Source: Corallococcus coralloides
GTDB taxonomy: Bacteria; Myxococcota; Myxococcia; Myxococcales; Myxococcaceae
Length of the DNA: 64,000 bases
Assembly: GCF_004104415.1 (NCBI RefSeq)
Contig: NZ_CP034669.1
Direction: 5' to 3' (one strand)
The position numbers and the translations under genes were made by a program. This document shows, one piece after another, positions 2,503 to 15,510 of the stretch. The notes beneath the pieces were generated by a model. It searched no databases. It was not told the origin of the DNA and was given only the letters and a program-made list of their open reading frames with translations. Every line of letters starts with the position of its first letter. Within the stretch, counting starts at the first letter, position 1.

Positions 2503-3291
2503 TCAGCTCGCGAGGATGTGCAGGGACAGCTCGTTGGGCGTGAGGACTTCACAGCCGTCGCGGGTGACGAGCACGGTGTGCTCGAACTGGGCGGACAGGC
2601 TGCCGTCCGCGGTCACGACGGTCCACCCGTCCGGCATCATCCGGATGTCCGGCCGCCCCAGGTTCACCATGGGCTCGATGGTGATGACCATCCCCGACTT
2701 CAGCGTGATGCCCGTGCCCGCCCTGGCCACGTGCGGCACGTGCGGCTCCCCGTGCATCTGCCTGCCGATGCCGTGGCCTCCGAACTCCTCCACCACGCTG
2801 CACCCCTCCGCCTTCGCCAGCGCCATCACCGCCGCGCCAATGTCCCCCAGCCGCGCGCCGTGCCGCACCACGGACACGCCCACGTCCCGGCAGCGCCGCG
2901 CCACGTCCACGACGTGCTTCGCGTCCGCGGAGACTTCACCCATCATGAACGTGGCGGACGTGTCGCCGTGGAAGCCGTCCAGGTGCGTCGTCACGTCCAC
3001 GTTGACGATGTCGCCGGGCTTCAGCACCTCATCCGTGCGCGGGATGCCATGGCACACCACGTGGTTGCGGCTGGTGCACACCGTGGCCGGGAAGCCCTTG
3101 TAGCCCAGCTGGCTGGGCGTCCCACCCCGCCGCGCCGTGTCCTCGCGAACCCACGCGTCGATGTCCGCCGTCGTCACGCCCGGCTGGAGCCGGGAGCCCA
3201 CGTGCGCCAACGTGCCCGCCGCCGCGCGGCCCGCCAGCCGCAGCCGCTCCACTTCACTGCCCTTGAAGAGAGGAATGCCCATGCCGGGCAA
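2503..3291 (-). CDS. map: Type I methionine aminopeptidase
   Basis: 262 aa; metal ligands and motifs 'HGIPRTDEVLKPGDIVNVDV', 'DTSATFMMGE', 'FGGHGIGRQMHGEPHVPH', 'ITIEPMV' typical of MetAP1. Confidence 0.9.
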   Translation of the reverse strand: MPGMGIPLFKGSEVERLRLAGRAAAGTLAHVGSRLQPGVTTADIDAWVREDTARRGGTPSQLGYKGFPATVCTSRNHVVCHGIPRTDEVLKPGDIVNVDVTTHLDGFHGDTSATFMMGEVSADAKHVVDVARRCRDVGVSVVRHGARLGDIGAAVMALAKAEGCSVVEEFGGHGIGRQMHGEPHVPHVARAGTGITLKSGMVITIEPMVNLGRPDIRMMPDGWTVVTADGSLSAQFEHTVLVTRDGCEVLTPNELSLHILAS

Positions 3292-3684: not shown

Positions 3685-6246
3685 CTACGACCAGGCGGCC
3701 ATGCCGCCAATGCGGCGCAGCATCAGGATGGGGCCGTCGTCCATGCGCCGGCCGCGCAGATCAATCTCACAGTCGATGACCCAGTCCCCATGGCCCTCCG
3801 GGTCCATGATGCGCTGCTGGGCCTCCCACTGGCGCGTTCCTGCTTCCTTGAGCTGCGTGTTCGCCGGCTTGCGCGCCTGGGGCGTGAGCACCACCAGCTT
3901 GTGCTCCTCGAAGTACGGAGCCATGGCCTGCTCCAGCTTCGGCGCGGTCCACTCGCCCAGCGCGTTGTCCAGCATGCCCAGCGCGTCCAGGTAGCGGCGC
4001 TGGCCCAGCGCGCGCAGCAGCCGGTGCAGCTCCTCGCGCACGCGCGCGGCGAAGGCCTTGGGGTCCTCCGTGAGCTCCTTGGGCTTCAGGTCCACCACCG
4101 GCTTCACTTCGACGGGGGCCTCCGGGTTGCGCATCCGCTCCCACTCGTCCAGGAGGCTGGAGTCCACCTGACGCAGCGTCGCGCGGAGGTGGTCCAGGAT
4201 GTCGTCCAGGTCCTCGTTGCGGAACTTCTCCGGCACCGTCTGCACCAGCGACTTGTAGACGTCACCCACGTAGCGCAAGAGCACGCCCTCGCTGCGCTGC
4301 AGGCCGTACTCGCGCACGTAGTCGTGGAAGGACATGAAGCGCTCGAACATGTCCCGGACAATGGACTTGGGCCGGATGTTCTCCTCGCCCACCCACGGGT
4401 GCTTCTTCGCGAAGGCGTTGAAGGTGCCGTAGACGAACTCGCGGTTCGGCTTGGGCCACTCCAGCTTCTCCAGCTCCTCCATGCGGTCGTCGTACTCCAC
4501 GCCCCGCGCCTTCATCTCTTGGATCTTCTCCCCCTTCAGCTGGTGCAGCTGCGCGTACAGCACCACGTCCGGGTTCTCCAGGATGGACTCCACCAGCGTG
4601 ACGACGTCCAGCGCGTACGTGTCCAGCGTGGGATCCAACAGCTCCAGCGTCTCATGCAGGTACAGGGACAGCGTGTGGTTGAGGCTGAAGTCGCGCTGCA
4701 GGTCCTCCGACACCTCCACCGTCGCCGAGTGCTTCTCCCACTGCACCACCTTGACGATGCCCGCGTCGCGCAGCGTGCGGAAGTACATCGCCGCGTCCTT
4801 CAGCAGCTTCTTCTTCGTGTAGTCGGAGCTGTGCGAGCGCATCACCAGCTGCACCAGCCGCTTGTAGCCACCGCTGCCCTCCGTCTTGTCGCTCTGCAGC
4901 AGGTTGAGCAGCAGGCCGTGGCTCACGTCGAAGCGCGACTCCAGCGGCTCCGGCAGCCCGTTCTGGAGCCGCTCGAAGGTGCTCTTGTCGTACTGCACGA
5001 AGCCCTTCTGCGGCGGCTTCGCCTTGGGCGACTTCTTCTTGCCCGCGGCCTCCTTCGCGGCCTGGCGGATGTTTTCAATCATGTACTCCGGGGCCTGCGC
5101 CACCACGCTGCCCTCGGTGTCGAAGCCCTTGCGGCCCGCGCGGCCGGCGATCTGCTTGAAGTCGCGCACGCTCAGCGTCGTCAGCTTCTCGCCGTTGAAC
5201 TTGAACAGCTGCGTGAAGAGCACCGTGCGGATGGGGATGTTCACGCCCACGCCCAGCGTGTCCGTGCCGCTGATGACCTTGAGCAGGCCCTGCTGCGCCA
5301 GCTTCTCCACCAGCAGGCGGTACTTGGGCAAGAGGCCCGCGTGGTGCATGCCGATGCCGTGGCGCAGGAAGCGCTGGAAGTCCTTGCCGTAGGGCGTGTC
5401 GAAGGGGGCGTCCAAGAGCGCCTGGCGGATCTCCTCCTTCTCCTCCTTGGTGTTGAAGTCCACGGACATCAGATTCTGCGCCTGCTCGGCCGCGGCCCGC
5501 TGCGTGAAGTTCACCAGGTACACGGGGAACTTCCCGCGCGCGATGAGGTCCTGGATGGTCTCGTGCAGCGGCACCTCGCGGTAGTCGAAGTCCAGCGGCA
5601 CGGGGCGCTCGGAGCTGCGCACCGTGGCCACCTCGCGGCCGGTGAGCTTCTCCAGGCTCTGCTCGATGACGTGCGTGTCGCCCAGCGTGGCGGACATCAG
5701 CAGGAACTGCGTCTTGGGCAGCGCCAGCAGCGGAATCTGCCAGGCCACCCCGCGCTCCTTGTCGGAGTAGTAGTGGAACTCGTCCATCACCACCGCGTCC
5801 ACGCGCGCGGAGGCGTCACGCAGCGCGAGGTTCGACAAAATCTCCGCCGTGCAGCAGAGGATGGGCGCCTCGCGGTTGATGGACGCGTCGCCCGTGAGCA
5901 TGCCCACGTTCTCCGGGCCGAAGGCCTTGGAGAGCGCGAAGAACTTCTCGTTCACCAGCGCCTTGATGGGGCACGTGTAGAACGACACCCTCCCTTCGGC
6001 CATGGCCTTGAAGTGGAGCGCCATGGCCACCAGCGACTTGCCGGAGCCCGTGGGCGTCTTGAGGAACAGGTGCTTGTCGCTCAAGAGCTCCAGGATGGCC
6101 TCCTCCTGGGCGGAGTACAGGGAGAGGCCGTTCGTGGCCACGTAGCCCACGAAGCGGTTGAGGATCTCGTCGGCATCGAGGGGGGGCTCGCCGGGCTTCG
6201 GCAGCAGGGCGGCGAGCGGGGCGCGGGTGTCGGCGGAGGCACTCAT
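3685..6246 (-). CDS. DEAD/DEAH-box helicase with DUF3516-type C-terminal region (Ski2/Lhr-like)
   Basis: 853 aa; motif I 'KTPTGSGKSLVAMAL', II 'DEFHYY', III 'SATLG', VI 'QIAGRAGRKGFDTEG'; long helical C-terminal extension characteristic of DUF3516 helicases of high-GC bacteria. Confidence 0.85.
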   Translation of the reverse strand: MSASADTRAPLAALLPKPGEPPLDADEILNRFVGYVATNGLSLYSAQEEAILELLSDKHLFLKTPTGSGKSLVAMALHFKAMAEGRVSFYTCPIKALVNEKFFALSKAFGPENVGMLTGDASINREAPILCCTAEILSNLALRDASARVDAVVMDEFHYYSDKERGVAWQIPLLALPKTQFLLMSATLGDTHVIEQSLEKLTGREVATVRSSERPVPLDFDYREVPLHETIQDLIARGKFPVYLVNFTQRAAAEQAQNLMSVDFNTKEEKEEIRQALLDAPFDTPYGKDFQRFLRHGIGMHHAGLLPKYRLLVEKLAQQGLLKVISGTDTLGVGVNIPIRTVLFTQLFKFNGEKLTTLSVRDFKQIAGRAGRKGFDTEGSVVAQAPEYMIENIRQAAKEAAGKKKSPKAKPPQKGFVQYDKSTFERLQNGLPEPLESRFDVSHGLLLNLLQSDKTEGSGGYKRLVQLVMRSHSSDYTKKKLLKDAAMYFRTLRDAGIVKVVQWEKHSATVEVSEDLQRDFSLNHTLSLYLHETLELLDPTLDTYALDVVTLVESILENPDVVLYAQLHQLKGEKIQEMKARGVEYDDRMEELEKLEWPKPNREFVYGTFNAFAKKHPWVGEENIRPKSIVRDMFERFMSFHDYVREYGLQRSEGVLLRYVGDVYKSLVQTVPEKFRNEDLDDILDHLRATLRQVDSSLLDEWERMRNPEAPVEVKPVVDLKPKELTEDPKAFAARVREELHRLLRALGQRRYLDALGMLDNALGEWTAPKLEQAMAPYFEEHKLVVLTPQARKPANTQLKEAGTRQWEAQQRIMDPEGHGDWVIDCEIDLRGRRMDDGPILMLRRIGGMAAWS

Positions 6247-6298: not shown

Positions 6299-6733
6299 TC
6301 AGCGGGAAACGTACAGTCCCACCGCGATGCGACCCTCCGTCAGGGGTCCGCCGGCCGCGGGGCGCTGCCAGCACACCCGCCCCGCCTGCTCCTGCGACAG
6401 GCAGGGCACGTCCGTCACCTCCAGCGAGGCTCCGGCCAGGCGGGCCTTGCGCACGGCGGCGCTCCGCGTCAGGCCCAGCAGCTCCGGCGCGGCGGGCGGT
6501 GTCGCCTCGGGGCCCTGCTGGACGAAGAGGGCCCGCACCTCACCGGGGCCACCGGGGGTGAAGCGCATTCCCGTCCCGTCCGCGGTGACCCCGCCGTGCA
6601 GCTCCAGCTCCACCGGCCCCAGCACGAAGGGGCCGGCGCCGAGCCGCGCCTGGACCCGCGCGAGCGACTCACGCAGGTCCACCAGCAGGGCCTCCAGGTC
6701 GATGGCGTCGCTCATCGCGCCAGGGGCCTCCAC
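6299..6733 (-). CDS. Hypothetical protein with C-terminal PASTA-like domain; last gene of 11-gene operon
   Basis: 144 aa; C-terminus 'PELLGLTRSAAVRKARLAGASLEVTDVPCLSQEQAGRVCWQRPAAGGPLTEGRIAVGLYV' fits PASTA consensus; N-terminus helix+hairpin 'LEALLVDLRESLARVQARLG...VELELHGGV' may be a degenerate copy of the operon's repeated module. No signal peptide. Confidence 0.5.
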   Translation of the reverse strand: MEAPGAMSDAIDLEALLVDLRESLARVQARLGAGPFVLGPVELELHGGVTADGTGMRFTPGGPGEVRALFVQQGPEATPPAAPELLGLTRSAAVRKARLAGASLEVTDVPCLSQEQAGRVCWQRPAAGGPLTEGRIAVGLYVSR

Positions 6734-6752
6734 CGTGGCGTGGCGCCCCGGC

Positions 6753-7421
6753 TCACTTCAGCGTCCCGGGCGTCGTGGACTCCAGGACGGGCGAGCGGGT
6801 GGGCGTGCTGGTGGGGGGGAGCTTCCCGCCCCCGGTGGCTTGCACGGTGAGCACCAGCTCGGTGCCGCGCGGAAGCAGCGTCCCCGGCTCGGCCGAGGCC
6901 GAGGTGACCAGGGCGGCGTCCGCCGCGCCGCTGGGGAACCGGTGCGGCACGCCAATCGCGGACAGCAGCAGCCGCGCGTCGCCCACCGTCTTGCCCACCA
7001 CCGCCGGCACCACCACCAGCGCCTCCGCCTGGGGCGAGGGAGGCACCGGCACCACCCGGAACTTCAGCCGCGACTGCGCCGTCAGGTTGTAGGCGAAGCG
7101 GTTGGTGTAGCTGGCGTCCATGGGCGCGCCGTACATCTTCAGCCGCGTCCGTCCATCCGTCCGCTCCTCCGCGGTGATGGACAGCGCCACGGCGATCTCC
7201 GCCTCGGCCTCGGGGATGTGGTACCAGGTCGGCCGGTAGCCGATGCGCTGCAGCTCCACCGCCAGGTCCTCGTCGGAGGCGTAGAGCTCGCGGATCCGCT
7301 CGATGGTCGCCGCGTCCAGCTCCCGCTGCGCCTCCGCCACGCCGCGGCCCACCGAGGAGATCAACGCGCCCAGCGGCGCGCTCAGCGCCTCCAGTTGGGG
7401 GACGTCATTCGAATCCGCCAT
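6753..7421 (-). CDS. Repeated-module paralog (copy 6) fused to C-terminal PASTA-like domain
   Basis: 222 aa; module 'LGALISSVGRGVAEAQRELD...WYHIPEAEAEIAVALSITAEERT...YNLTAQSRLKFRVVPVPPSP' then PASTA-like 'VVPAVVGKTVGDARLLLSAIGV...VTSASAEPGTLLPRGTELVLTV'. 3-nt gap to next gene. Confidence 0.55.
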   Translation of the reverse strand: MADSNDVPQLEALSAPLGALISSVGRGVAEAQRELDAATIERIRELYASDEDLAVELQRIGYRPTWYHIPEAEAEIAVALSITAEERTDGRTRLKMYGAPMDASYTNRFAYNLTAQSRLKFRVVPVPPSPQAEALVVVPAVVGKTVGDARLLLSAIGVPHRFPSGAADAALVTSASAEPGTLLPRGTELVLTVQATGGGKLPPTSTPTRSPVLESTTPGTLK

Positions 7422-7424
7422 GGT

Positions 7425-8156
7425 TCAGCCCTCCATCGCCTGGCCAATGATCAACTGCACGGGGCCCGAAGCGAGCGGCTTGCCGGGCTCCGGAATCTGC
7501 CGCAGCACGCGCCCCCACTGCCCGGGCTCCTTGACGAAGAGCGGCATCAGGTCCACCCGCAGCCCCGCCTCCGCCGCGCGCCGCCGGGCCGCCGAGGCCG
7601 TCAGCCCCAGGAAGCCTGGCACCTCGCGGGCGGGCGCGTCGCCCGGCTCGGGCGCGGCGGGAGACTGCTCCACGAACTGGGCCTCCGCCTCCGTCACGCC
7701 CTCGGGCGTCGTCTCCGTCCACCGCACGCGCACGGTGCTCAACCGCACCGTCGTCAGCGACGAGCGCACCGACTCAATCTGCTGGCCCGCCGACTTCAAC
7801 TTGTCGGACAGCACCAGGGACGGGGGCTGTTCCAGGGCGGGCTCCTTCGTGGGCTCCACCGCCGCGGAGGACACGGCGCGGACGCCCTCCCTCGCGGGCT
7901 CCAGGACGACCATCGTCCCGTAGTCGATGAGGGTGCTGCTCATCTTCACCGGGAAGGTGGCCACCCCGGCGGAGTCCAGCCGGAGGTGGGAGCCGAAGGT
8001 GGCGCTGCTGACCTCCATCTCCAGCACGCCCTCCTGGTTCGTCACCCCGGTGTCGCGCAGCTCGAAGGTGCCCGCCTTCGCGGGGACCCACCACGCCACC
8101 TTCATGCCCGCCACGGGGACTCCCGTGGCCTTGCGGAACACGGCCCGGACCTTCAT
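7425..8156 (-). CDS. CarboxypepD_reg/Big-like domain protein with C-terminal PASTA-like domain
   Basis: 243 aa; 'KATGVPVAGMKVAWWVPAKAGTFELRDTGVTNQEGVLEMEV' resembles carboxypeptidase-regulatory-like beta-sandwich; C-terminus 'VPGFLGLTASAARRRAAEAGLRVDLM...VLRQIPEPGKPLASGPVQLIIG' PASTA-like. ATGA overlap with upstream gene. Confidence 0.5.
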   Translation of the reverse strand: MKVRAVFRKATGVPVAGMKVAWWVPAKAGTFELRDTGVTNQEGVLEMEVSSATFGSHLRLDSAGVATFPVKMSSTLIDYGTMVVLEPAREGVRAVSSAAVEPTKEPALEQPPSLVLSDKLKSAGQQIESVRSSLTTVRLSTVRVRWTETTPEGVTEAEAQFVEQSPAAPEPGDAPAREVPGFLGLTASAARRRAAEAGLRVDLMPLFVKEPGQWGRVLRQIPEPGKPLASGPVQLIIGQAMEG

Positions 8157-8818
8157 CGAGCCACCTCGCAGGACAGCGCCAGCGTCCGCGACGCGGCGTC
8201 CACCGTGAGCGCCAGGATGCGGGCCTGCTCGCCGGCCGCCACGCGCAGCGTCGTCCGCGCCTCCCCGGCCGCGTCCGTCCTCACCACCGCGAGCACCACG
8301 TCCGTGCCCGCCAGCGGCGCCACGCCGGACAGCGACTGCGTCGTCCGCCGGTCCAGGTTGAACTCCACCTCCACGCCCGGCAGGGGCTCGCCCGCGGCGT
8401 TGCGCACGCGCACCACCACGCCCGGCACGCCCCCGTCGCCGAGGACGCAGCGGGCGTCCAGCACCACCGGAGGCAGGCCCTCGTTGGCCGGCACCGCGAC
8501 GAAGCTGCCGCGGATCACGCTGACAATCTCAGTCTGCGTCTGCGAAGAGGCCACGTCCGCCAGCCGCACGGGCCGCATCTTCAGGATCTTCCCGGTGGCC
8601 ACCGGTCCGGTGGTGGTGGTGGACGTCTCCACGCGCAGGTCCATCCGCAGCTCGAACTCCAGCTTCGGCACGTAGTAGGTGAACTGGCGGCCGGGGGCGC
8701 CGGCCGCGGAGATGCCCCCCAGCTCCTGCTGGGCCTTCGCCAGGCCGTCGGCCAGCTCGAGCAGGTACTCGTCCAGCGTGCCGAACAACTCCTGCGCCTG
8801 CTGTGTCGTGTCACTCAT
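8153..8818 (-). CDS. Repeated-module paralog (copy 5) fused to CarboxypepD_reg/Big-like domain
   Basis: Track ORF 8153..8857; start MSDTTQQAQELF at 8818 gives 8-nt 'ATGAGTGA' overlap with upstream stop. Module 'LDEYLLELADGLAKAQQELG...FTYYVPKLEFELRMDLRVETS...TQTEIVSVIRGSFVAVPANE' then 'VPGVVVRVRNAAGEPLPGVEVEFNLD' beta-sandwich. Confidence 0.55.
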   Translation of the reverse strand: MSDTTQQAQELFGTLDEYLLELADGLAKAQQELGGISAAGAPGRQFTYYVPKLEFELRMDLRVETSTTTTGPVATGKILKMRPVRLADVASSQTQTEIVSVIRGSFVAVPANEGLPPVVLDARCVLGDGGVPGVVVRVRNAAGEPLPGVEVEFNLDRRTTQSLSGVAPLAGTDVVLAVVRTDAAGEARTTLRVAAGEQARILALTVDAASRTLALSCEVAR

Positions 8819-9761
8819 CCCGCGCTCCCTGGCGCCCGCGTTCCCGCCGCGCGTCACGTGCCGTGTCGCGTGCGTCCATGTCGTCCATGCCCATGCCGGC
8901 GCGCTCCATCTCCATGTCCATCCGCTGCTCCATGGATTCCATGTCCATGCCGGCCATCGCCAGTCCGCGCATCATCAGGGCCTCGGTGTCCATCGAGCGG
9001 GGATCCATCCCCCGAAGCTCGCGCGCCACCGCCACCCCCTTCTCCACCTTCCCTACCGTGAGCCCGCCGCGCCCCACCAGGGCCCGGCCCACCTGCCCGA
9101 GCGAGGGCAGCGCCTGGCCCTTCTCCAGCGCGAGGGGCTTGCGCGCCGCCGAGCGCGCCTCCTCCGCCGCGTCCGACAGCCGCCGGGTCGCGGACCCCAG
9201 CTCGCCCAGGGTCATGCGCCCCCGGCCCGGAGACTCCAGCACGCGCTGCGCCAGCCGCGTCGCCAGCTTCGCGCGCTCACGCGCCTTGCGCGCCCACTGC
9301 TGGCGCAGCGTCTGCTGCTTCTGCGCCTGACGCCGGGCCGCCTTCCCCGTCTCCAGGCGCTCGCGGCGCAGCGCCTCCACCCGCTCGGCCTCCTCCGCCT
9401 CCGTCCGGCGCCGGGCGTATAGCTTCTGCTCCAGCAGCCGCCGCGCGGTGTCCCGCTCGTGCTGCTTGCGCTCCGCGATGCGCGACTCCGGCGTGTGCTG
9501 GACGACGGGGAACTGCTTCGCCAGCCGCTCGTCCACGGGCGCCTCCTGCACGCCGCTCAGCGCCTTCATCGTGTCTTCGAGCTGCCGGCGCTCCTTCAGC
9601 AGCGCCGCCAGCTCCGGGTCGCTGGCGGCCACCTGCTCCAGCGAGGGCACGGGCGCCGCCGCGGACGTGTCCGCTCCCGGAGCAGGAGCGGGCGCGCCAG
9701 CGTCGTCGGGGGCCCCGGCGGCGTCCTCCTCGAGCAGGTCTTCCCAACGGACGTGTGACAT
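8811..9761 (-). CDS. Highly charged coiled-coil protein with Met/Asp-rich C-terminal tail
   Basis: 316 aa, R/E/K/Q-rich heptad-like stretches ('RRRTEAEEAERVEALRRERLETGKAARRQAQKQQTLRQQWARKARERAKLA'), C-terminus 'MMRGLAMAGMDMESMEQRMDMEMERAGMGMDDMDARD'. No signal peptide. Confidence 0.5.
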   Translation of the reverse strand: MSHVRWEDLLEEDAAGAPDDAGAPAPAPGADTSAAAPVPSLEQVAASDPELAALLKERRQLEDTMKALSGVQEAPVDERLAKQFPVVQHTPESRIAERKQHERDTARRLLEQKLYARRRTEAEEAERVEALRRERLETGKAARRQAQKQQTLRQQWARKARERAKLATRLAQRVLESPGRGRMTLGELGSATRRLSDAAEEARSAARKPLALEKGQALPSLGQVGRALVGRGGLTVGKVEKGVAVARELRGMDPRSMDTEALMMRGLAMAGMDMESMEQRMDMEMERAGMGMDDMDARDTARDARRERGRQGARDE

Positions 9762-9779
9762 GCGCGGCGCCCCTCTTCG

Positions 9780-10370
9780 TCAGGTGACGTTGCCCACGGC
9801 GGTGTCGATCTTCCCGCTGACGGCCTCGCCCTCCGCGGTGCCCTTGAGGCTCTTGGCGATCTCCGCGCAGATCTGCTGGAGCGCCGCGGGCGGGGGGATG
9901 GGCACCAGCTTGGTGCGGATGAGGCTCGAGCCCTCGGCGGAATAGCTGTACTTCTGCGAGTGCTTGGCCGTGACGGTGGTGACGTGGCTCTTGTGGCCCT
10001 TCACCAGCGTGGTGAGGATGCCCTTGTCGCGGTCCACCTTGCGGTCGCGCGTCTGGGTCGAGTCGTCCGTGGACTCGTGCATGGAGATCTCCATCTTCAC
10101 TTCGATGATGGTCTCCACGAACTGGTAGAACGTGGGCGTGAAGCCGAGCAGGAGCAGGGGGTACTCGGTGGTCCCCAGCTTCACGAAGCCGGCGCCGTCC
10201 CGCACGGCGTTGCCGCTATCGTCGATGCGGTAGCCCGCCATGAGCTGGGCGATCTTCAGCGATGAGCTGTCCAGCGCGTACTGGGCATCCGCGATGGCGT
10301 TGCCCAGGTTGCGGACCATCTCCCCGAAGGGGACGTTGAGCAGATCCTGACCAATGGAGTGAGTGGGCAT
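9780..10370 (-). CDS. Repeated-module paralog (copy 1), stand-alone 196 aa
   Basis: 'LLNVPFGEMVRNLGNAIADAQYALD...LGFTPTFYQFVETIIEVKMEISMHEST...KYSYSAEGSSLIRTKLVPIPPPAAL'. Aligns along full length with 10389..10961 and 10984..11487. Confidence 0.6.
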   Translation of the reverse strand: MPTHSIGQDLLNVPFGEMVRNLGNAIADAQYALDSSSLKIAQLMAGYRIDDSGNAVRDGAGFVKLGTTEYPLLLLGFTPTFYQFVETIIEVKMEISMHESTDDSTQTRDRKVDRDKGILTTLVKGHKSHVTTVTAKHSQKYSYSAEGSSLIRTKLVPIPPPAALQQICAEIAKSLKGTAEGEAVSGKIDTAVGNVT

Positions 10371-10388
10371 GGTGCGCGCGCTCCCGGG

Positions 10389-10961
10389 CTACTTCGTGGT
10401 GGGCGTGGTGCCGGCCCTGGACGCGATGAGCGCGCGAACCCGCTCCTCGAAGAGGGCCGGCGGAGGCACCGGCACCAGCTTGGTGCGCAGCAGGCTGGAG
10501 CCCTCCACGCTGTAGTCGTACTTGCGCGTGTAGCTGGCATCCACGGTCGTCACCACGGCCTGGGGCGCGCCGCCGCGCTTGAAGAGGCGCAGCCCGCCGG
10601 CCGTCCGCGAGGTGCTCTGCGTCGCCACCTTGCTCTCCGTGCTCTCCGTCATCTTGATGGCGATCTTCACCTCGATGATGGTGTCCACGAACTGGTAGAA
10701 GTTGGGCGCGAAGCCCAGCTCCATCATGGACGAGGGCGTGCCCGCGAAGGACACCTTGGTGTCCACCCGGATGGGCTTGCCGGAGCCGTCGAGCTGGATG
10801 TTCCCGTCGGCGTCCCGCAGCAGCGCCTCGCCGCTCATCATCTCCGCGACGAGCATCCCGCTCTTGTCCAGCTCGAGCTGCGCCTCGGCGATGGCGGTCG
10901 CCATCTCACGAATCATGTCCCCCATGGGGACGTTCAGCAGTTCCTGACCGACGTTGGGCAT
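10389..10961 (-). CDS. Repeated-module paralog (copy 2), stand-alone 190 aa
   Basis: 'LLNVPMGDMIREMATAIAEAQLELD...LGFAPNFYQFVDTIIEVKIAIKMTESTES...KYDYSVEGSSLLRTKLVPVPPPALF'; AAGGA Shine-Dalgarno-like upstream. Confidence 0.6.
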   Translation of the reverse strand: MPNVGQELLNVPMGDMIREMATAIAEAQLELDKSGMLVAEMMSGEALLRDADGNIQLDGSGKPIRVDTKVSFAGTPSSMMELGFAPNFYQFVDTIIEVKIAIKMTESTESKVATQSTSRTAGGLRLFKRGGAPQAVVTTVDASYTRKYDYSVEGSSLLRTKLVPVPPPALFEERVRALIASRAGTTPTTK

Positions 10962-10983
10962 GGTGTCTGGGTCCTTGCGCGCT

Positions 10984-11487
10984 TCAGGCGGAGGTGTTGG
11001 TGGAGGCCGCGGGGGCGGGCGGCTGGGCGGCGATCTCGTTGAGCAGTTGGTGCAGGCGCGCGGGCGGGGGCAGCGACACCAGCCGCGCGGCGATGGAGCT
11101 GGCCCCCTGCACCTCGAAGCCGTACTTGCGGCTGTACTCGGCGTTGACCGTCACGGAGAAGACGCCGGCCATGCCGCCCGTCGCGCCGCCGCCCACGGAG
11201 AACTCCGTGGACTCGCGGATGGTGAAGGTGAGCTTCGCCTCGAGCGTGGCCTCGGCGAAGGCGTAGAACGTGGGCGTGAAGCCGAGCGCGAGCAGGCTCC
11301 ACAGCTGCCCGTCGCCCAGGTCCACGGTGCGCTCGGACATGCGCTTCGCGATGTCCAGCGAGTTGATGTCCAGCGCGTGCTGCGCGTCCGCCACCGCGCG
11401 CCCGAGCCGCTCGATGAGCTCCGGCAGCGGCGCGTCCAGCACCGTCATCATCGCGCGCTGGCCCTGCGTGGTGTTGTTTCCGGGCAT
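10984..11487 (-). CDS. Repeated-module paralog (copy 3), stand-alone 167 aa
   Basis: 'LPELIERLGRAVADAQHALD...LGFTPTFYAFAEATLEAKLTFTIRESTEFSV...KYGFEVQGASSIAARLVSLPPPARL'; AGGAGG SD immediately upstream. Confidence 0.6.
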   Translation of the reverse strand: MPGNNTTQGQRAMMTVLDAPLPELIERLGRAVADAQHALDINSLDIAKRMSERTVDLGDGQLWSLLALGFTPTFYAFAEATLEAKLTFTIRESTEFSVGGGATGGMAGVFSVTVNAEYSRKYGFEVQGASSIAARLVSLPPPARLHQLLNEIAAQPPAPAASTNTSA

Positions 11488-11496
11488 GGGGCCTCC

Positions 11497-13593
11497 TTAC
11501 GGGTACCAGCGCTGGAGGTAGTCGCCAATGGCCTGGAGGAACTGGGGCGGCGCGGGCACCGCCACCAGACGGGCCTTGATGGTCGAGCTGCCGGACACGC
11601 TCAGCTCGTACTTCACCGCCAGGTGCGCATCCACGTTGAGGGCGCGCAGCTCGCGCTCGGAGCTCTCCTCGCGGTCCGCGGACGGCTTGCCGGCGATGCG
11701 GTTGGCGGACAGCAGGAAGGCGGCGGGGTTGCTGGTGCCCAGCATGGTGCCGGAGGGGCCGGAGACGGTGACGATGTTGCCCGCGGACTGGGCCTGGAGG
11801 CCCGCGGCCAGCAGGCCGGAGCTGGAGCCCGCCGTGATGGCGGCGGCCAGGTTGCGCGCCGTGTCCGCGGCCGTCACCCCCAGCGTGAACTGCCCTGGCT
11901 GCGGGGCGACGCCGGCCTCCACGGCCACCAACTGCACGTTGTCGAGGACGACGGTGTCGCGCGGCTGGGGCGAGGCCGGGGGGCGGCCGTCGCCGAAGCG
12001 GCGGGCCACGCGGATGGAGCCGGCGGCGGACAGGGCCGGCGCGGTGGGCGTGCGCGCGAACAGGGTGAACAGGGCGTGGTCGCCGGTGCCGTACAGGTAG
12101 ACGCGGTCCCCGCGCGCGAAGGCGCCGAAGGCGGTGTTGGCGTTGGCGTCGCGGATGGCGCGGGCCAGGTTGGCGGCGGTGGACTCGGCGGTGGCGCCCA
12201 CCGCGAAGGTGGTGCCCTGGGAGGCGGTGCCCTGGGTGAAGTCCGTGCCGCGGAAGGTGACGACGGCCGTGGTGGGCGCGTTCGCCGCGGCGCGCGTGCG
12301 CGGCACGATGCGGGCCTCCCGGTCCGCCCCCGTGGGGTCGAAGGCGGCCGTGGCCGCGACGGTGCGGGCCACCAGCGACGCGGGCACGCCGGCGAACTTG
12401 AAGACGACGCGCCGGTTGGCCGCCAGGTCGGAGCCGCTGAAGCTGACCGTCGCGCCCATGCCCCGGGCCTTGAGCCTGCTGGCCGCCACGCCCCGCGACG
12501 TCAGCGCCCGCAGGACGAAGTCCGCGCGCTTCTGCGACAGGCGCTGGTTGTAGCCGGGGGCCGGCGGGGTGCGCTGGTCCGCCCAGCCCTCCAGGTCCAG
12601 CGAGGCGGACGGGTGCTCCGCCAGCAGCGCCGCCACCGCGTCGAGCACGGCGGAGGGCTCGCGGTCCGTGCTGTAGGTGGTGGTGGGCACGTCGTGGATG
12701 TCGGTGTCGAAGTAGAGGGCCCGGTTGCAGTCAGCGCCGGAGACGACGACGAAGGCCGCCGGGTCCACCTGCTGGCCAATGTCCGCCAGCGCCGCGCCCA
12801 CCGTCGCCGCGGCGCTGGTGTAGCGCGTGCCGTTGGTGGCCGGCAGCAGCAGCGCGGGCGCGGGCGTCACGCTGCCCAGGCGCGCGATGACCAGGTTGTC
12901 GCCGGGCGCCGCCTGCGGCGAGGTGCGCACGGTGATGACCGAGCGGTTGATGGCGTAGAGGTCCGGGCGGTTGGTGCTGGCGGTGACGCCCGACTGCATC
13001 TCCCAGTCCATGAAGATGCCCTGCAGATCCCCCGTGGCCTGGTTGGTCCAGACGGAGTTGTTGCGCAGGGCCACGAGCAGCTCCTGCGCCGTCTCCCACA
13101 GCGTGTCCTGGCGGGTCACGGGCAGGCCGGTGCTGTTGGGCCCCACGCCGCCGTCCAGCGCGTAGCTGGTGGTGCCCACCGTGAGGTGGCCCGGCGCGTT
13201 GGCCACCAACGCCAGACAGGCGTAGGGGGGAATGCCCTCGCCGTCCTGCACGGTGAGGGTGGCGCTGCCGCTGGCGGAGGACGTCTCGAGGCTGTACTCG
13301 CTCGACTCGTTCTCCCGGTCGTAGTTGAAGTTGACGTCCACGTCGACGGTGGTCGAGTAGTAGACGTTGAGGTTCACCTCCAGGTCGGCGTACTGGAAGT
13401 GGTAGAAGGCCGGCCGCAGCCCCAGCGACAGCAGGTTCTGCGTCATGCCCGGCAGGACGGTCTGCCCCATGCGCAGCGTCTGGTCCACGCTGTTGGTGTC
13501 CAGCTTGGCCTGGGCCTCGGCGATGGCGAGCCCCATGTCCCGGATGAAATCGGAGATGTTGAGATCCGCGAGGATCTTCCCTGCTTTCGGCAT
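11497..13593 (-). CDS. Repeated-module paralog (copy 4) split around a large insert containing an OmpA/MotB-like peptidoglycan-binding domain
   Basis: 698 aa; N-terminus 'ILADLNISDFIRDMGLAIAEAQAKLD...LGLRPAFYHFQYADLEVNLNVYYSTTVDVDV', central 'LDLEGWADQRTPPAPGYNQRLSQKRADFVLRALTSRGVAASRLKARGMGATVSF...NRRVVFKF' (OmpA_C-like), C-terminus 'KYELSVSGSSTIKARLVAVPAPPQFL'. No signal peptide. Confidence 0.6.
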   Translation of the reverse strand: MPKAGKILADLNISDFIRDMGLAIAEAQAKLDTNSVDQTLRMGQTVLPGMTQNLLSLGLRPAFYHFQYADLEVNLNVYYSTTVDVDVNFNYDRENESSEYSLETSSASGSATLTVQDGEGIPPYACLALVANAPGHLTVGTTSYALDGGVGPNSTGLPVTRQDTLWETAQELLVALRNNSVWTNQATGDLQGIFMDWEMQSGVTASTNRPDLYAINRSVITVRTSPQAAPGDNLVIARLGSVTPAPALLLPATNGTRYTSAAATVGAALADIGQQVDPAAFVVVSGADCNRALYFDTDIHDVPTTTYSTDREPSAVLDAVAALLAEHPSASLDLEGWADQRTPPAPGYNQRLSQKRADFVLRALTSRGVAASRLKARGMGATVSFSGSDLAANRRVVFKFAGVPASLVARTVAATAAFDPTGADREARIVPRTRAAANAPTTAVVTFRGTDFTQGTASQGTTFAVGATAESTAANLARAIRDANANTAFGAFARGDRVYLYGTGDHALFTLFARTPTAPALSAAGSIRVARRFGDGRPPASPQPRDTVVLDNVQLVAVEAGVAPQPGQFTLGVTAADTARNLAAAITAGSSSGLLAAGLQAQSAGNIVTVSGPSGTMLGTSNPAAFLLSANRIAGKPSADREESSERELRALNVDAHLAVKYELSVSGSSTIKARLVAVPAPPQFLQAIGDYLQRWYP

Positions 13594-13596
13594 GGT

Positions 13597-14145
13597 CTAC
13601 CCCAGGGGTGAAGCAACGGGAGGAAGTGAGACGGCGACTTCGGGACGAACGGTGTCCGGACGGACGACCCAGTAGGCGTGACGGTCCTGCTCCAGCGTGA
13701 TGCGGCGCGCGTCCACGTGCAGCCCGGTCCGCGCCCAGCCCAGTACCCGCTCCGACAGCGGGAGCCGCCCGGCGCCGGCCAGCGCCACCGCGGACTCCAG
13801 CCGGGTGCGCGCCTCCGCCAGGCGCCCCAGCTTCGCCAACGCCAGGCCGTGCCGCTCGTGGTGCGCGGCCAGGTCCAGGAGGGCCAGGTCGCTCGTGGGA
13901 GGCTGCTGCTGGTAGTGGGCCTCCACGCGCTGGCAGAAGGAGATGACGGCCTCGTGGGCCCCCGAGCGCTCCAGCGACTCGAGCACGCACCACGCATAGT
14001 GACGCTGGCAGACGTCGGAGCCGCCCTGGAGCGCGGCCAGCCGCAGCGCTTCCCGGTAGTGGCGCAGCGCCTCGTCATGCCGGCCGGCCAGCGCGAACAC
14101 CTTGCCCTGCTCCGCCACGCGGAAGTGGAGCGCGAGGGAGCTCAC
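13597..14145 (-). CDS. TPR-repeat protein
   Basis: 182 aa; helical repeats 'HDEALRHYREALRLAALQGG', 'AEARTRLESAVALAGAG' typical of TPR; ATGA overlap with upstream gene. Confidence 0.55.
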   Translation of the reverse strand: MSSLALHFRVAEQGKVFALAGRHDEALRHYREALRLAALQGGSDVCQRHYAWCVLESLERSGAHEAVISFCQRVEAHYQQQPPTSDLALLDLAAHHERHGLALAKLGRLAEARTRLESAVALAGAGRLPLSERVLGWARTGLHVDARRITLEQDRHAYWVVRPDTVRPEVAVSLPPVASPLG

Positions 14146-15224
14146 TGGGCCACCAGCGAGGCCCGCGTGCCCCGCGCTTTCAGCTCCGCGACGAGCCAGC
14201 GTGCGCGCGTGTCCCCCACCGCGGGCTGGAAGGTATGCGGCAGCCGGGAGAGCGCGGTGCGCGCCTCGTTGGCGGGCAGCCCCAGCACCGGGGCCAGCAG
14301 CTCCGCGGCCCCGGCGGGGTCCTTCGAGTCCTCCACCGTCAGGCGGAAGCTGCGGAAGTTGAGGAGCTGCACGGCCAGCTTCGCGCCCGCGGCCTCCAGG
14401 GGAGCGGTGCGCGCCACCACGTCCGCGCGCGACAGTCCCGTGTGCAGCACCACCGGCAGCCGCTTGAGCACCTTCGGCACCAGCGCCGGGGGCATGCCGG
14501 TCTCACGCACCAGCAGCTCCGGGAAGCCGGCGGCGGCGGGGGCCTCCAGGAGGCTGACGTCGAAGCGCTGGAAGGCGTGGTCCAACAACCGCACCCCACC
14601 CCGCGCTCCCAGCTCCCGCCACACGCGCTCCGCCTGCTCGTGCGAGAGGTCCCGGGCCACCAGCGGAGGCTCGCCCGGACTCACGCCCTGCGCCTCCAGC
14701 ACCGAGCGGACCACCGAGAGGCTGACCGCTTCGGTGGCGAAGACGTCATAGCGGGCCGTGGGCGGATGGCTGGCGTCCACCTCCGCGCCCAGCGGGGCGA
14801 AGCGCTCCCGGAGCGCGTCCACCGTGGCCTGGGACACGGAGCCGAGCACCGTGGGCGGCGTGGCGCAGAGCGCCGCGGCGGCGTCCGCCAGGGGACAGCC
14901 CAGGACGGCCGCCAGCTCCGTGGAAACCTCACGGAAGCGCCCGCCGTCACGCAGGTACAGCGCCACGTCGTAGGTCTGCCCGGCGGGGGGAGGAAGGGGC
15001 GCGTCATCCGGCTCCACGACCACGCGCAGGCCGGCGTTGCCCAGCACCTCCGACAGGCTCCTGGCGAGCTCCTCGGGCAGCCCTCCCGCCAGCACCGCGG
15101 GGGCGCGGAACAGCCGCGCGGCGAGCTCCGCCGGGGGCAGATCGAAATGGGGCACCAGGGCGCGGACGATGCTCGCGGAGCCTCGGTGCAAGGAGAGAAC
15201 AGTAACGCGCCATGAACCGTTCAT
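14142..15224 (-). CDS. Protein composed of ~5 tandem ribosomal L7/L12 C-terminal-domain-like repeats; first gene of operon
   Basis: 360 aa; repeats e.g. 'LPEELARSLSEVLGNAGLRVVVE', 'LSRADVVARTAPLEAAGAKLAVQ', 'ANEARTALSRLPHTFQPAVGDTRARWLVAELKARGTRASLV' resemble Ribosomal_L12 CTD (EAKdlve..Pk.lkegvskeeAeeikkkLeeaGAkvel). Confidence 0.5.
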   Translation of the reverse strand: MNGSWRVTVLSLHRGSASIVRALVPHFDLPPAELAARLFRAPAVLAGGLPEELARSLSEVLGNAGLRVVVEPDDAPLPPPAGQTYDVALYLRDGGRFREVSTELAAVLGCPLADAAAALCATPPTVLGSVSQATVDALRERFAPLGAEVDASHPPTARYDVFATEAVSLSVVRSVLEAQGVSPGEPPLVARDLSHEQAERVWRELGARGGVRLLDHAFQRFDVSLLEAPAAAGFPELLVRETGMPPALVPKVLKRLPVVLHTGLSRADVVARTAPLEAAGAKLAVQLLNFRSFRLTVEDSKDPAGAAELLAPVLGLPANEARTALSRLPHTFQPAVGDTRARWLVAELKARGTRASLVAQ

Positions 15225-15262: not shown

Positions 15263-15510
15263 CGATTCGCGAGGTGCGAGGCGCTTACCAATGTATGAGA
15301 AATGCCCGCTCGCTCCTCTCAATCCAACCTCCTCCGTCATGACGCGGGCTGATACACGCCCGTGAAACATCCGGCTGGGTCTGGGCCGGCGGGTCGTGCC
15401 TGACGCCCTGCCTGCCCGGTCTGTGCTCACAGGCACACTGGCAACGGCTGAAGCGCGCATGGCCATGGGCGGAGGGCCTCCCCATCCTGCCCCCGCGACA
15501 TTCACGGGGG

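Follow-up and report, generated by a model that had tools for sequence, protein, structure and literature searches.

The analysed window, a stretch of 64,000 nucleotides (nt) from Corallococcus coralloides (RefSeq contig NZ_CP034669.1), carries on its minus strand a gene at 14142-15224 that starts with ATG and encodes a protein of 360 amino acids (AA), here called L12x5. Five tandem domains with homology to the C-terminal domain (CTD) of the ribosomal protein bL12 (L7/L12) make up the whole protein, and judged by its sequence it is not a ribosomal protein. The bL12 CTD forms the mobile tip of the ribosomal stalk that recruits factors, and it is known in hardly any other role. In L12x5, duplication has turned it into a rigid-looking five-domain protein that is stripped of the factor-binding residues and fixed as the lead gene of a cassette. 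The open reading frame (ORF) had been proposed in a first-pass annotation made from the DNA letters, and this proposal was confirmed. Its third-position GC content of 0.92 is coding-like and typical of real genes in this window of 72% GC. Many long ORFs overlap across this GC-rich region, and the L12x5 frame is the one with coding-like composition.

Domain architecture of L12x5

An AlphaFold2 model of L12x5 based on an alignment of 24 sequences reached a mean predicted local distance difference test (pLDDT) value of 92.1 and a predicted template modelling score (pTM) of 0.84, with nothing below a pLDDT of 50. Secondary structure assignment with DSSP divides the model into five beta-alpha-alpha-beta-alpha-beta units, with the exception of repeat 3 (R3), which is shorter and degenerate and follows a beta-alpha-beta-alpha-beta order without the second helix. 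All repeats are encoded on the minus strand. Repeat 1 (R1) covers AA 4-72 (15009-15215) and R3 covers AA 159-215 (14580-14750), both supported by the AlphaFold2 secondary structure and hhalign. The same two sources support repeat 2 (R2) at AA 84-152 (14769-14975), together with Pfam, and repeat 5 (R5) at AA 292-359 (14148-14351), together with shuffled controls. Repeat 4 (R4) at AA 220-287 (14364-14567) is further supported by hhalign and by the match of the family profile to the bL12 structure 1ctf. The two repeat peptides quoted in the first-pass annotation are both present in the protein, at AA 31-71 and AA 317-358.

R1 is tethered via an 11-residue proline-rich linker (AA 73-83), and the linkers from R2 to R5 comprise 4-6 residues in the model. 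The lowest pLDDT values, 81-86, are those of the first approximately 40 residues of R1. The high pTM suggests a fixed packing between the domains instead of beads on a string, so that the model suggests rigidly packed domains in a fixed arrangement. L12x5 has neither a signal peptide nor a membrane segment, which points to a soluble protein with no detectable export signal.

Homology to the bL12 C-terminal domain

The PF00542 (Ribosomal_L12) search that had been proposed as a check of the five L7/L12-CTD-like repeats gave 29.1 bits for the whole protein, compared to a gathering cut-off of 25.9 (E=1.3e-6). Among the single repeats, R2 alone scores, with 14.6 bits and a best stretch at AA 106-150. 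The whole-protein score therefore adds up several weak copies. When the five repeat segments were cut by hand and aligned with the E. coli L7/L12 CTD using MAFFT, the alignment was nearly gapless with pairwise identities of 16-28%, and of 17-28% between the repeats themselves. The E. coli sequence used here agrees with the 1ctf alignment.

For a more sensitive comparison, 162 full-length family members were aligned and the alignment was sliced into five repeat profiles. Compared with each other using hhalign, the profiles match with P-values between 1e-12 and 1e-6, except for R3 against R5 (2e-3). The strongest of these matches joins R5 to R4 (P=1e-12), and the degenerate R3 is linked to R1, R2 and R4 at about 1e-6. 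When the E. coli L12 CTD was used as a single sequence for comparison, the profiles gave P-values of 4e-10 for R1, 3e-8 for R2, 7e-9 for R4 and 3e-5 for R5, whereas R3 alone is not significant (P=4e-3). The scores of R1, R2, R4 and R5 are 46.0, 38.9, 39.6 and 23.2, respectively. Column-shuffled control profiles scored far lower, with means of 7-9 and a maximum of 16, and composition is therefore not the cause of the match.

The comparison with known structures, also proposed in the first-pass annotation, agrees with these results. Searched against all PDB sequences, the family profile found bL12 chains in 12 of the 15 matches listed (E up to 10), including every significant one, and the top match was 1ctf (E=1.1e-5), spanning all of R4. 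The core shared with bL12 comprises [FY]DVxL in strand 1, G[LM]x[LP]xxA in the turn between the helices, AP before strand 2, GxS capping the last helix and a G preceding the last strand. The motifs common to both proteins are structural, i.e. core and turn residues. Taken with the five units of the AlphaFold2 model, the profile comparisons bear out the five tandem repeats that had been described, with R3 as a degenerate copy.

Comparison with ribosomal and other L12-type proteins

L12x5 has the CTD sequence signature and fold of bL12 (PF00542; PDB 1ctf, 8yeq), but it differs from it in nearly every other respect. A bL12 chain contains one CTD instead of five, and it has an N-terminal dimerisation and uL10-binding domain and a long flexible hinge, neither of which is present in L12x5. 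No Pfam family besides PF00542 was found in L12x5, even at E-values up to 10, and the uL10-binding N-terminal domain is therefore absent. R1 starts already at residue 4. The NCBIfam equivalog model for bL12, TIGR00855, gave 21.5 bits compared to a cut-off of 84.4. While bL12 measures about 120-130 AA and has its gene beside rplJ, which encodes uL10, among the ribosomal protein and rpoBC genes, L12x5 has 360 AA, and its neighbors are TPR, OmpA-like, paralog and PASTA genes, both here and in 78 other loci. Furthermore, the bL12 CTD is freely mobile, whereas the domains of L12x5 appear rigidly packed in the model.

A further difference concerns function. E. coli bL12 binds EF-G, EF-Tu, IF2 and RF3 through K65, V66, I69, K70, R73, L80 and E82, which lie on helices 4 and 5. 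Equivalents of these residues are conserved in no repeat among the 162 family members. The structural residues P91 (of the AP motif) and G114 are conserved in R1, R2, R4 and R5 and are near-invariant in R1 and R4. With the loss of the factor-binding residues and of the domain that anchors bL12 to uL10, the sequence supports the earlier description of the protein as non-ribosomal.

The description as unusual holds for the architecture and the context, but not for the use of the domain as such, since single bL12 CTDs outside the ribosome have already been reported (PMC6375957, PMC8283722). Phage proteins carry a single bL12 CTD inside larger polypeptides (Mizuno et al. 2019, PMC6375957), retain the residues that contact uL11, EF-G and EF-Tu, and at least one of them was detected in ribosome preparations (PMC6375957). 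In addition, one case of a cyanobacterial orthocaspase carrying a Ribosomal_L12 domain is known (PMC8283722). In these proteins, one bL12 domain is located amid unrelated sequence, whereas L12x5 contains nothing but five diverged copies, and unlike the phage proteins it lacks the factor-contact residues. These were the only cases of tandem or non-ribosomal L12 domains found in a limited searchable library, which contained no description of a protein built entirely of tandem L12 CTDs or of the L12x5 cassette; given the limited library, this absence is no proof. L12x5 is regarded as new in its five-domain, all-L12-CTD architecture and its conserved cassette context, while the reuse of the fold outside the ribosome was already known.

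The L12x5 protein family

An initial set of 25 homologs was extended by 150 further sequences using HMMER. An exhaustive HMMER search of 1.84 billion representative proteins, clustered at 50% identity, gave 560 clusters at a threshold of E<1e-3, of which 368 remain at E<1e-10 and 239 at E<1e-30. Among the best 150 of the 560, a length of 340-430 AA is the rule, and the minority of shorter sequences seem to be truncated. With a single exception, these 150 match the profile of 362 positions in one collinear stretch. The five-domain architecture of the family is therefore fixed, and no variants with 3 or 7 repeats were found among these 150.

The sequences themselves are diverse. The median identity to the L12x5 of the window is 31% in the 162-member alignment, and the closest homologs are Corallococcus proteins with 89-92% identity. 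Conservation across the family is highest in R1 and R2, with R2 topmost, and lowest in R3 and R5. The L12x5 alignment contains no conserved stretch of 7-10 residues, and the polar residues that are conserved include D93, S131, T134, R141, W202, R212, R220, D222 and R342. Homologs are named, if at all, 'hypothetical protein', a precomputed PF00542 match exists for some of them only, and no family-specific Pfam or NCBIfam model was found. A new family can be defined by a length of about 350-400 AA, five collinear domains, the first position in the cassette and a stop codon overlapping the start of the TPR gene, all of which are found in the window protein. For annotators, this provides a family definition for several hundred such proteins.

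Gene cassette in the window

L12x5 heads eleven tightly packed genes on the minus strand, reaching from 15224 down to 6299 and spanning 9 kb. A gap of 286 bp and a divergently oriented gene lie 5' of it, and ten closely spaced or overlapping genes on the same strand follow, in agreement with the first-pass description as the first gene of an operon. Upstream of L12x5, the element TGGTAAGCGCCTCGCA (15275-15290, minus strand), approximately 50 nt from the start codon, has the GG-N10-GC spacing of sigma-54 promoters and agrees with 9 of 12 consensus positions. However, no sigma-54 promoter with at least 10 of 12 positions was found in 79 regions upstream of gene 1 (the window and 78 other loci), and since no comparable element precedes the orthologs, this likeness is probably due to chance.

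The second gene (13597-14145, minus strand) encodes a protein of 182 AA with TPR_12/TPR_2 matches at the Pfam cut-off. Its GTG start overlaps the TGA stop of L12x5 in the 4-nt sequence GTGA, which suggests translational coupling of the two genes. The remaining genes, all on the minus strand, include a group of paralogs termed P1 to P6. Gene 3 (P1, 11497-13593) encodes 698 AA with an OmpA-like domain (Pfam OmpA, E=1.5e-10) and was assigned to the paralogs by BLAST, as were gene 4 (P2, 10984-11487, 167 AA), gene 5 (P3, 10389-10961, 190 AA) and gene 6 (P4, 9780-10370, 196 AA). Gene 8 (P5, 8153-8857, 234 AA) combines a paralog N-terminal region with a Big_1-like domain, and gene 9 (7425-8156, 243 AA) combines a Big_1-like domain with PASTA; in both cases Big_1 is below the Pfam cut-off. 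A paralog region, supported by BLAST, and PASTA are joined in gene 10 (P6, 6753-7421, 222 AA), and the cassette ends with gene 11, coding for a small PASTA protein of 144 AA recognised with Pfam (6299-6733). PASTA is above the Pfam cut-off in two cassette proteins.

P1-P4 and P6 are paralogs by BLAST, and P5 was added to the superfamily upon iteration. They have a common N-terminus of the type MP..GQ.LLNVP. P1 is a paralog interrupted by an insert of approximately 550 AA that holds the OmpA-like domain, as its N- and C-terminal ends match the small paralogs. For P2-P4, the predicted layout is a long N-terminal helix, a beta-hairpin with strands of approximately 30 residues, predicted to be amphipathic, and a C-terminal helix. 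No solved structural relative was found for these helix/long-beta-hairpin proteins. More than 1600 homologs of P3 exist, and those listed are mostly 50-60% identical across phyla, without a name or Pfam domain; the copy of C. coralloides KYC2213 (L009) is 100% identical. The helix/hairpin subunits are likely meaningful only as an oligomer.

Gene 7 (8811-9761, minus strand, 316 AA) was characterised by sequence composition. It encodes a charged protein that is rich in Arg, Glu and Ala and has a tail rich in Met and Asp (…GMDMESMEQRMDMEMERAGMGMDDMD…). It is single-copy in each of 78 loci, with lengths from approximately 225 to 670 AA. The protein is probably a coiled coil and could act as a scaffold or ruler.

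No cassette protein has a characterised relative. Neither Pfam nor NCBIfam revealed an enzyme or NTPase among the cassette proteins; NCBIfam gave only generic OmpA-like matches on P1, far below the curated cut-offs, and nothing on seven other cassette proteins. With PADLOC, no meaningful match was obtained for ten of the eleven proteins, the 144-AA PASTA protein being outside the scan, and the single hit was at chance level (E=0.016, 12 bits). PHROGs likewise yielded nothing meaningful. A hydropathy heuristic detected no signal peptide or membrane segment in any of the eleven proteins. This includes the OmpA-like and PASTA proteins (6299-13593, minus strand), and no secretion component is encoded in the cassette.

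Directly downstream, a DEAD-box helicase with DUF3516 (E=2e-153) is encoded on the minus strand at 3685-6246, followed by a methionine aminopeptidase (2503-3291) and YceG/MltG (1360-2469). As these genes are not located near the cassette in other phyla, they are not members of it.

Distribution of the cassette

Two conserved peptides of the paralogs were used to scan 185,579 species-representative genomes, which resulted in 250 matches, from which 80 loci were kept; in all, 88 loci were compared. In 78 of these 88, the L12x5 hidden Markov model detected one copy and no more, located upstream in the same orientation. The other ten are contigs beginning inside the cassette, so that L12x5 is the first gene in 78 of 78 informative loci. 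The TPR protein is present in one copy in 80 of the 88 loci, and exactly six genes of the paralog superfamily in the same order were found in 54 of 66 complete loci. Additional paralogs (10-12 ORFs), or more of them past the PASTA genes, were observed in two metagenome-assembled genomes (MAGs) of Chloroflexia (L023, L036) and in L065 and L080.

The cassette comprises 10-11 genes in a strict order and is found in more than ten bacterial phyla. Beyond the Myxococcota, hosts among the Alpha- and Gammaproteobacteria are Caulobacter spp., Sphingomonas trueperi, Pseudomonas abyssi, Halopseudomonas, Saccharophagus and Marinibactrum. The Bacteroidota are represented by Olleya, Chitinophagales and Saprospiraceae, and further hosts belong to the Acidobacteriota, Planctomycetota, Chloroflexia, Gemmatimonadota, Opitutales, Desulfonema magnum and Nitrospirota. 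An identical gene order was found in Burkholderiales bacterium JOSHI_001 (L001), two metagenomic contigs (L003, L005), an Acidobacteriota MAG (L006), Nitrincola schmidtii (L007) and another MAG (L008). In all six, the first gene encodes approximately 360-400 AA and overlaps the TPR gene by 4 nt. For the last three, hhalign matched the first gene product to the family profile over the full length (probability 100, E=1e-39 to 1e-60).

Despite this breadth the cassette is rare, as about 186,000 species genomes yielded no more than a few hundred matches. No recurring flanking genes were found around the loci. A sigma-54 activator seemed to recur upstream in 16 loci, but single-linkage clustering had produced this pattern artificially, and a close homolog is present in only two loci. 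The rare, self-contained and patchy distribution suggests a spread by horizontal transfer. Searches with tblastn of L12x5 and P3 against plasmids and phages gave no match, including L12x5 against 50,697 phage records. In Nitrincola schmidtii, a gene with Amidase_2 and SH3_3 domains, resembling a peptidoglycan amidase, lies directly after the cassette (L007, 11843-12706). It was observed in this one locus only and would fit a connection to the cell wall or to lysis.

Proposed role and alternative explanations

The strict gene order, the fixed number of paralogs, the lack of detectable enzymes or export signals and the peptidoglycan-binding modules together point to a self-assembling apparatus, and the entire cassette may represent a novelty. 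The OmpA-like and PASTA modules, along with the Amidase_2/SH3_3 gene of Nitrincola, point to a link to peptidoglycan. Our best guess, which is a tentative one, is that the hairpin subunits are assembled with the help of a protein-binding platform or chaperone made up of L12x5 and the TPR protein. Both proteins would associate in a complex that serves as a non-enzymatic platform, either an assembly chaperone or a scaffold, for the approximately six paralogous hairpin subunits. This complex would keep aggregation-prone subunits soluble and ordered until assembly, and the subunits would then build a multi-subunit structure bearing the OmpA-like and PASTA modules. The L12 fold would thereby be reused as a protein-protein interaction module, comparable to its use in the ribosomal stalk and to the ClpS adaptor. 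With their predicted amphipathic hairpin strands of approximately 30 residues, the paralogs are plausibly clients that require a chaperone.

An analogy is offered by small TPR chaperones, such as the class II chaperones of type III secretion, which are paired with aggregation-prone structural or pore-forming subunits. The TPR protein of the cassette would resemble them as an all-TPR protein of approximately 180 AA that is putatively co-translated with its partner and encoded upstream of long-hairpin subunits. In contrast to the type III secretion chaperones, there is no secretion system in the cassette, and the search of the TPR protein against PDB sequences returned generic or designed TPR proteins only.

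Several observations weigh against a chaperone or platform role. The simplest version of it, with one L12 domain per paralog, was discarded because there are six paralogs and five domains. Moreover, L12x5 retains the size of a five-domain protein in loci with 10-12 paralog ORFs, and this constant domain number argues against a one-domain-per-subunit model. The high pTM and the shortness of the linkers from R2 to R5 would be expected just as well of a rigid structural part. L12x5 also evolves faster than its proposed clients, with 25-39% identity compared to 50-60% in the same loci. To our knowledge, there is no chaperone with an L12 fold, ClpS being an adaptor and not a chaperone. Finally, the cytoplasm is not where OmpA-like and PASTA domains normally act, and no route of export can be discerned.

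A more far-reaching version, which we regard as possible but doubtful, is that the cassette builds a new self-assembling structure in more than ten phyla, for example a hetero-oligomeric beta-barrel or tube of six paralogs with OmpA and PASTA modules, which L12x5 would template or chaperone as a rigid five-fold platform. If true, this would imply a novel cellular role of the ribosomal stalk domain and a new type of bacterial apparatus. As Corallococcus, Caulobacter, Pseudomonas abyssi, Halopseudomonas, Sphingomonas trueperi and Nitrincola are cultivable hosts, the question is directly testable.

The main rival to the chaperone or platform role, although itself rather unlikely, is that L12x5 is a structural subunit of the final assembly, such as a rigid pseudo-pentameric hub, cap or base. 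The fixed domain arrangement implied by the model, the single copy, the invariant five-domain length, the strictly kept position in the cassette and the independence of domain number from paralog number would all be consistent with such a part. However, L12x5 is far less conserved than the paralogs, and its lead position beside a small TPR partner is, by analogy, more like that of accessory or chaperone pairs. The cassette has less probability of being a conflict system for defence or as a toxin, with the hairpin paralogs as latent pore-forming effectors and an L12x5-TPR pair that would either restrain them or sense a trigger. Its patchy occurrence across phyla, with the horizontal transfer that this suggests, the lack of conserved flanking genes and the long amphipathic beta-hairpins predicted in the paralogs would fit this explanation. 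A Trypco2 match in the last PASTA protein could be added, as this domain has been described in conflict systems, though only as a neighbor of trypsin-like peptidases (PMC7159879). With 21.4 bits, however, this match is below the cut-off of 24.2, and none of 40 paralogs has it, so it was dropped as evidence. The ten cassette proteins scanned have no PADLOC match, no protease, NTPase or nuclease was found among the cassette proteins, and the plasmid and phage searches were empty. In addition, six paralogs in a fixed order are more typical of a structural apparatus.

The remaining explanations are considerably weaker. The ribosomal stalk contains four to eight L12 CTDs, and the five domains of L12x5 are comparable in multiplicity. 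As these are genuinely homologous to the part of bL12 that binds the factors, L12x5 could be imagined as a stalk mimic that recruits or sequesters EF-G, EF-Tu, IF2 or RF3. In this way, it might provide an NTPase, which the cassette does not encode; this lack is what makes the idea attractive. It is nevertheless very improbable, since the seven factor-contacting residues are kept in no repeat and only core and turn residues are shared, in contrast to the phage bL12-domain proteins, which retain them (PMC6375957). A similarly small chance is given to a ClpS-like action, by which L12x5 would bind the MP..GQ.LLNVP-type N-termini of the paralogs or deliver them to a Clp protease. ClpS, the N-degron adaptor of ClpAP/ClpCP, has an alpha/beta fold like that of the L12x5 domains, and the support is at this fold level only. 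ClpS is a single domain and L12x5 has five, their sequence signature is that of L12 and not of ClpS, and no ClpS was found with Pfam or among the 15 PDB matches at E-values up to 10. Moreover, no clp gene is located inside or beside the cassette. That L12x5 is a spurious ORF, i.e. a chance frame in GC-rich DNA whose match to an Ala/Leu-rich Pfam model is compositional, might have been considered in view of the many long spurious ORFs overlapping the region and the low identity between the repeats. The evidence gathered has already refuted this explanation, and its probability is negligible.

Base composition of the window

The GC content of the window is mostly 70-73%. Between 44000 and 56000 it decreases to 0.60-0.66, and few ORFs in this region pass the filter on third-position GC content. 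It may represent an island of foreign DNA, or else a non-coding or otherwise atypical region.

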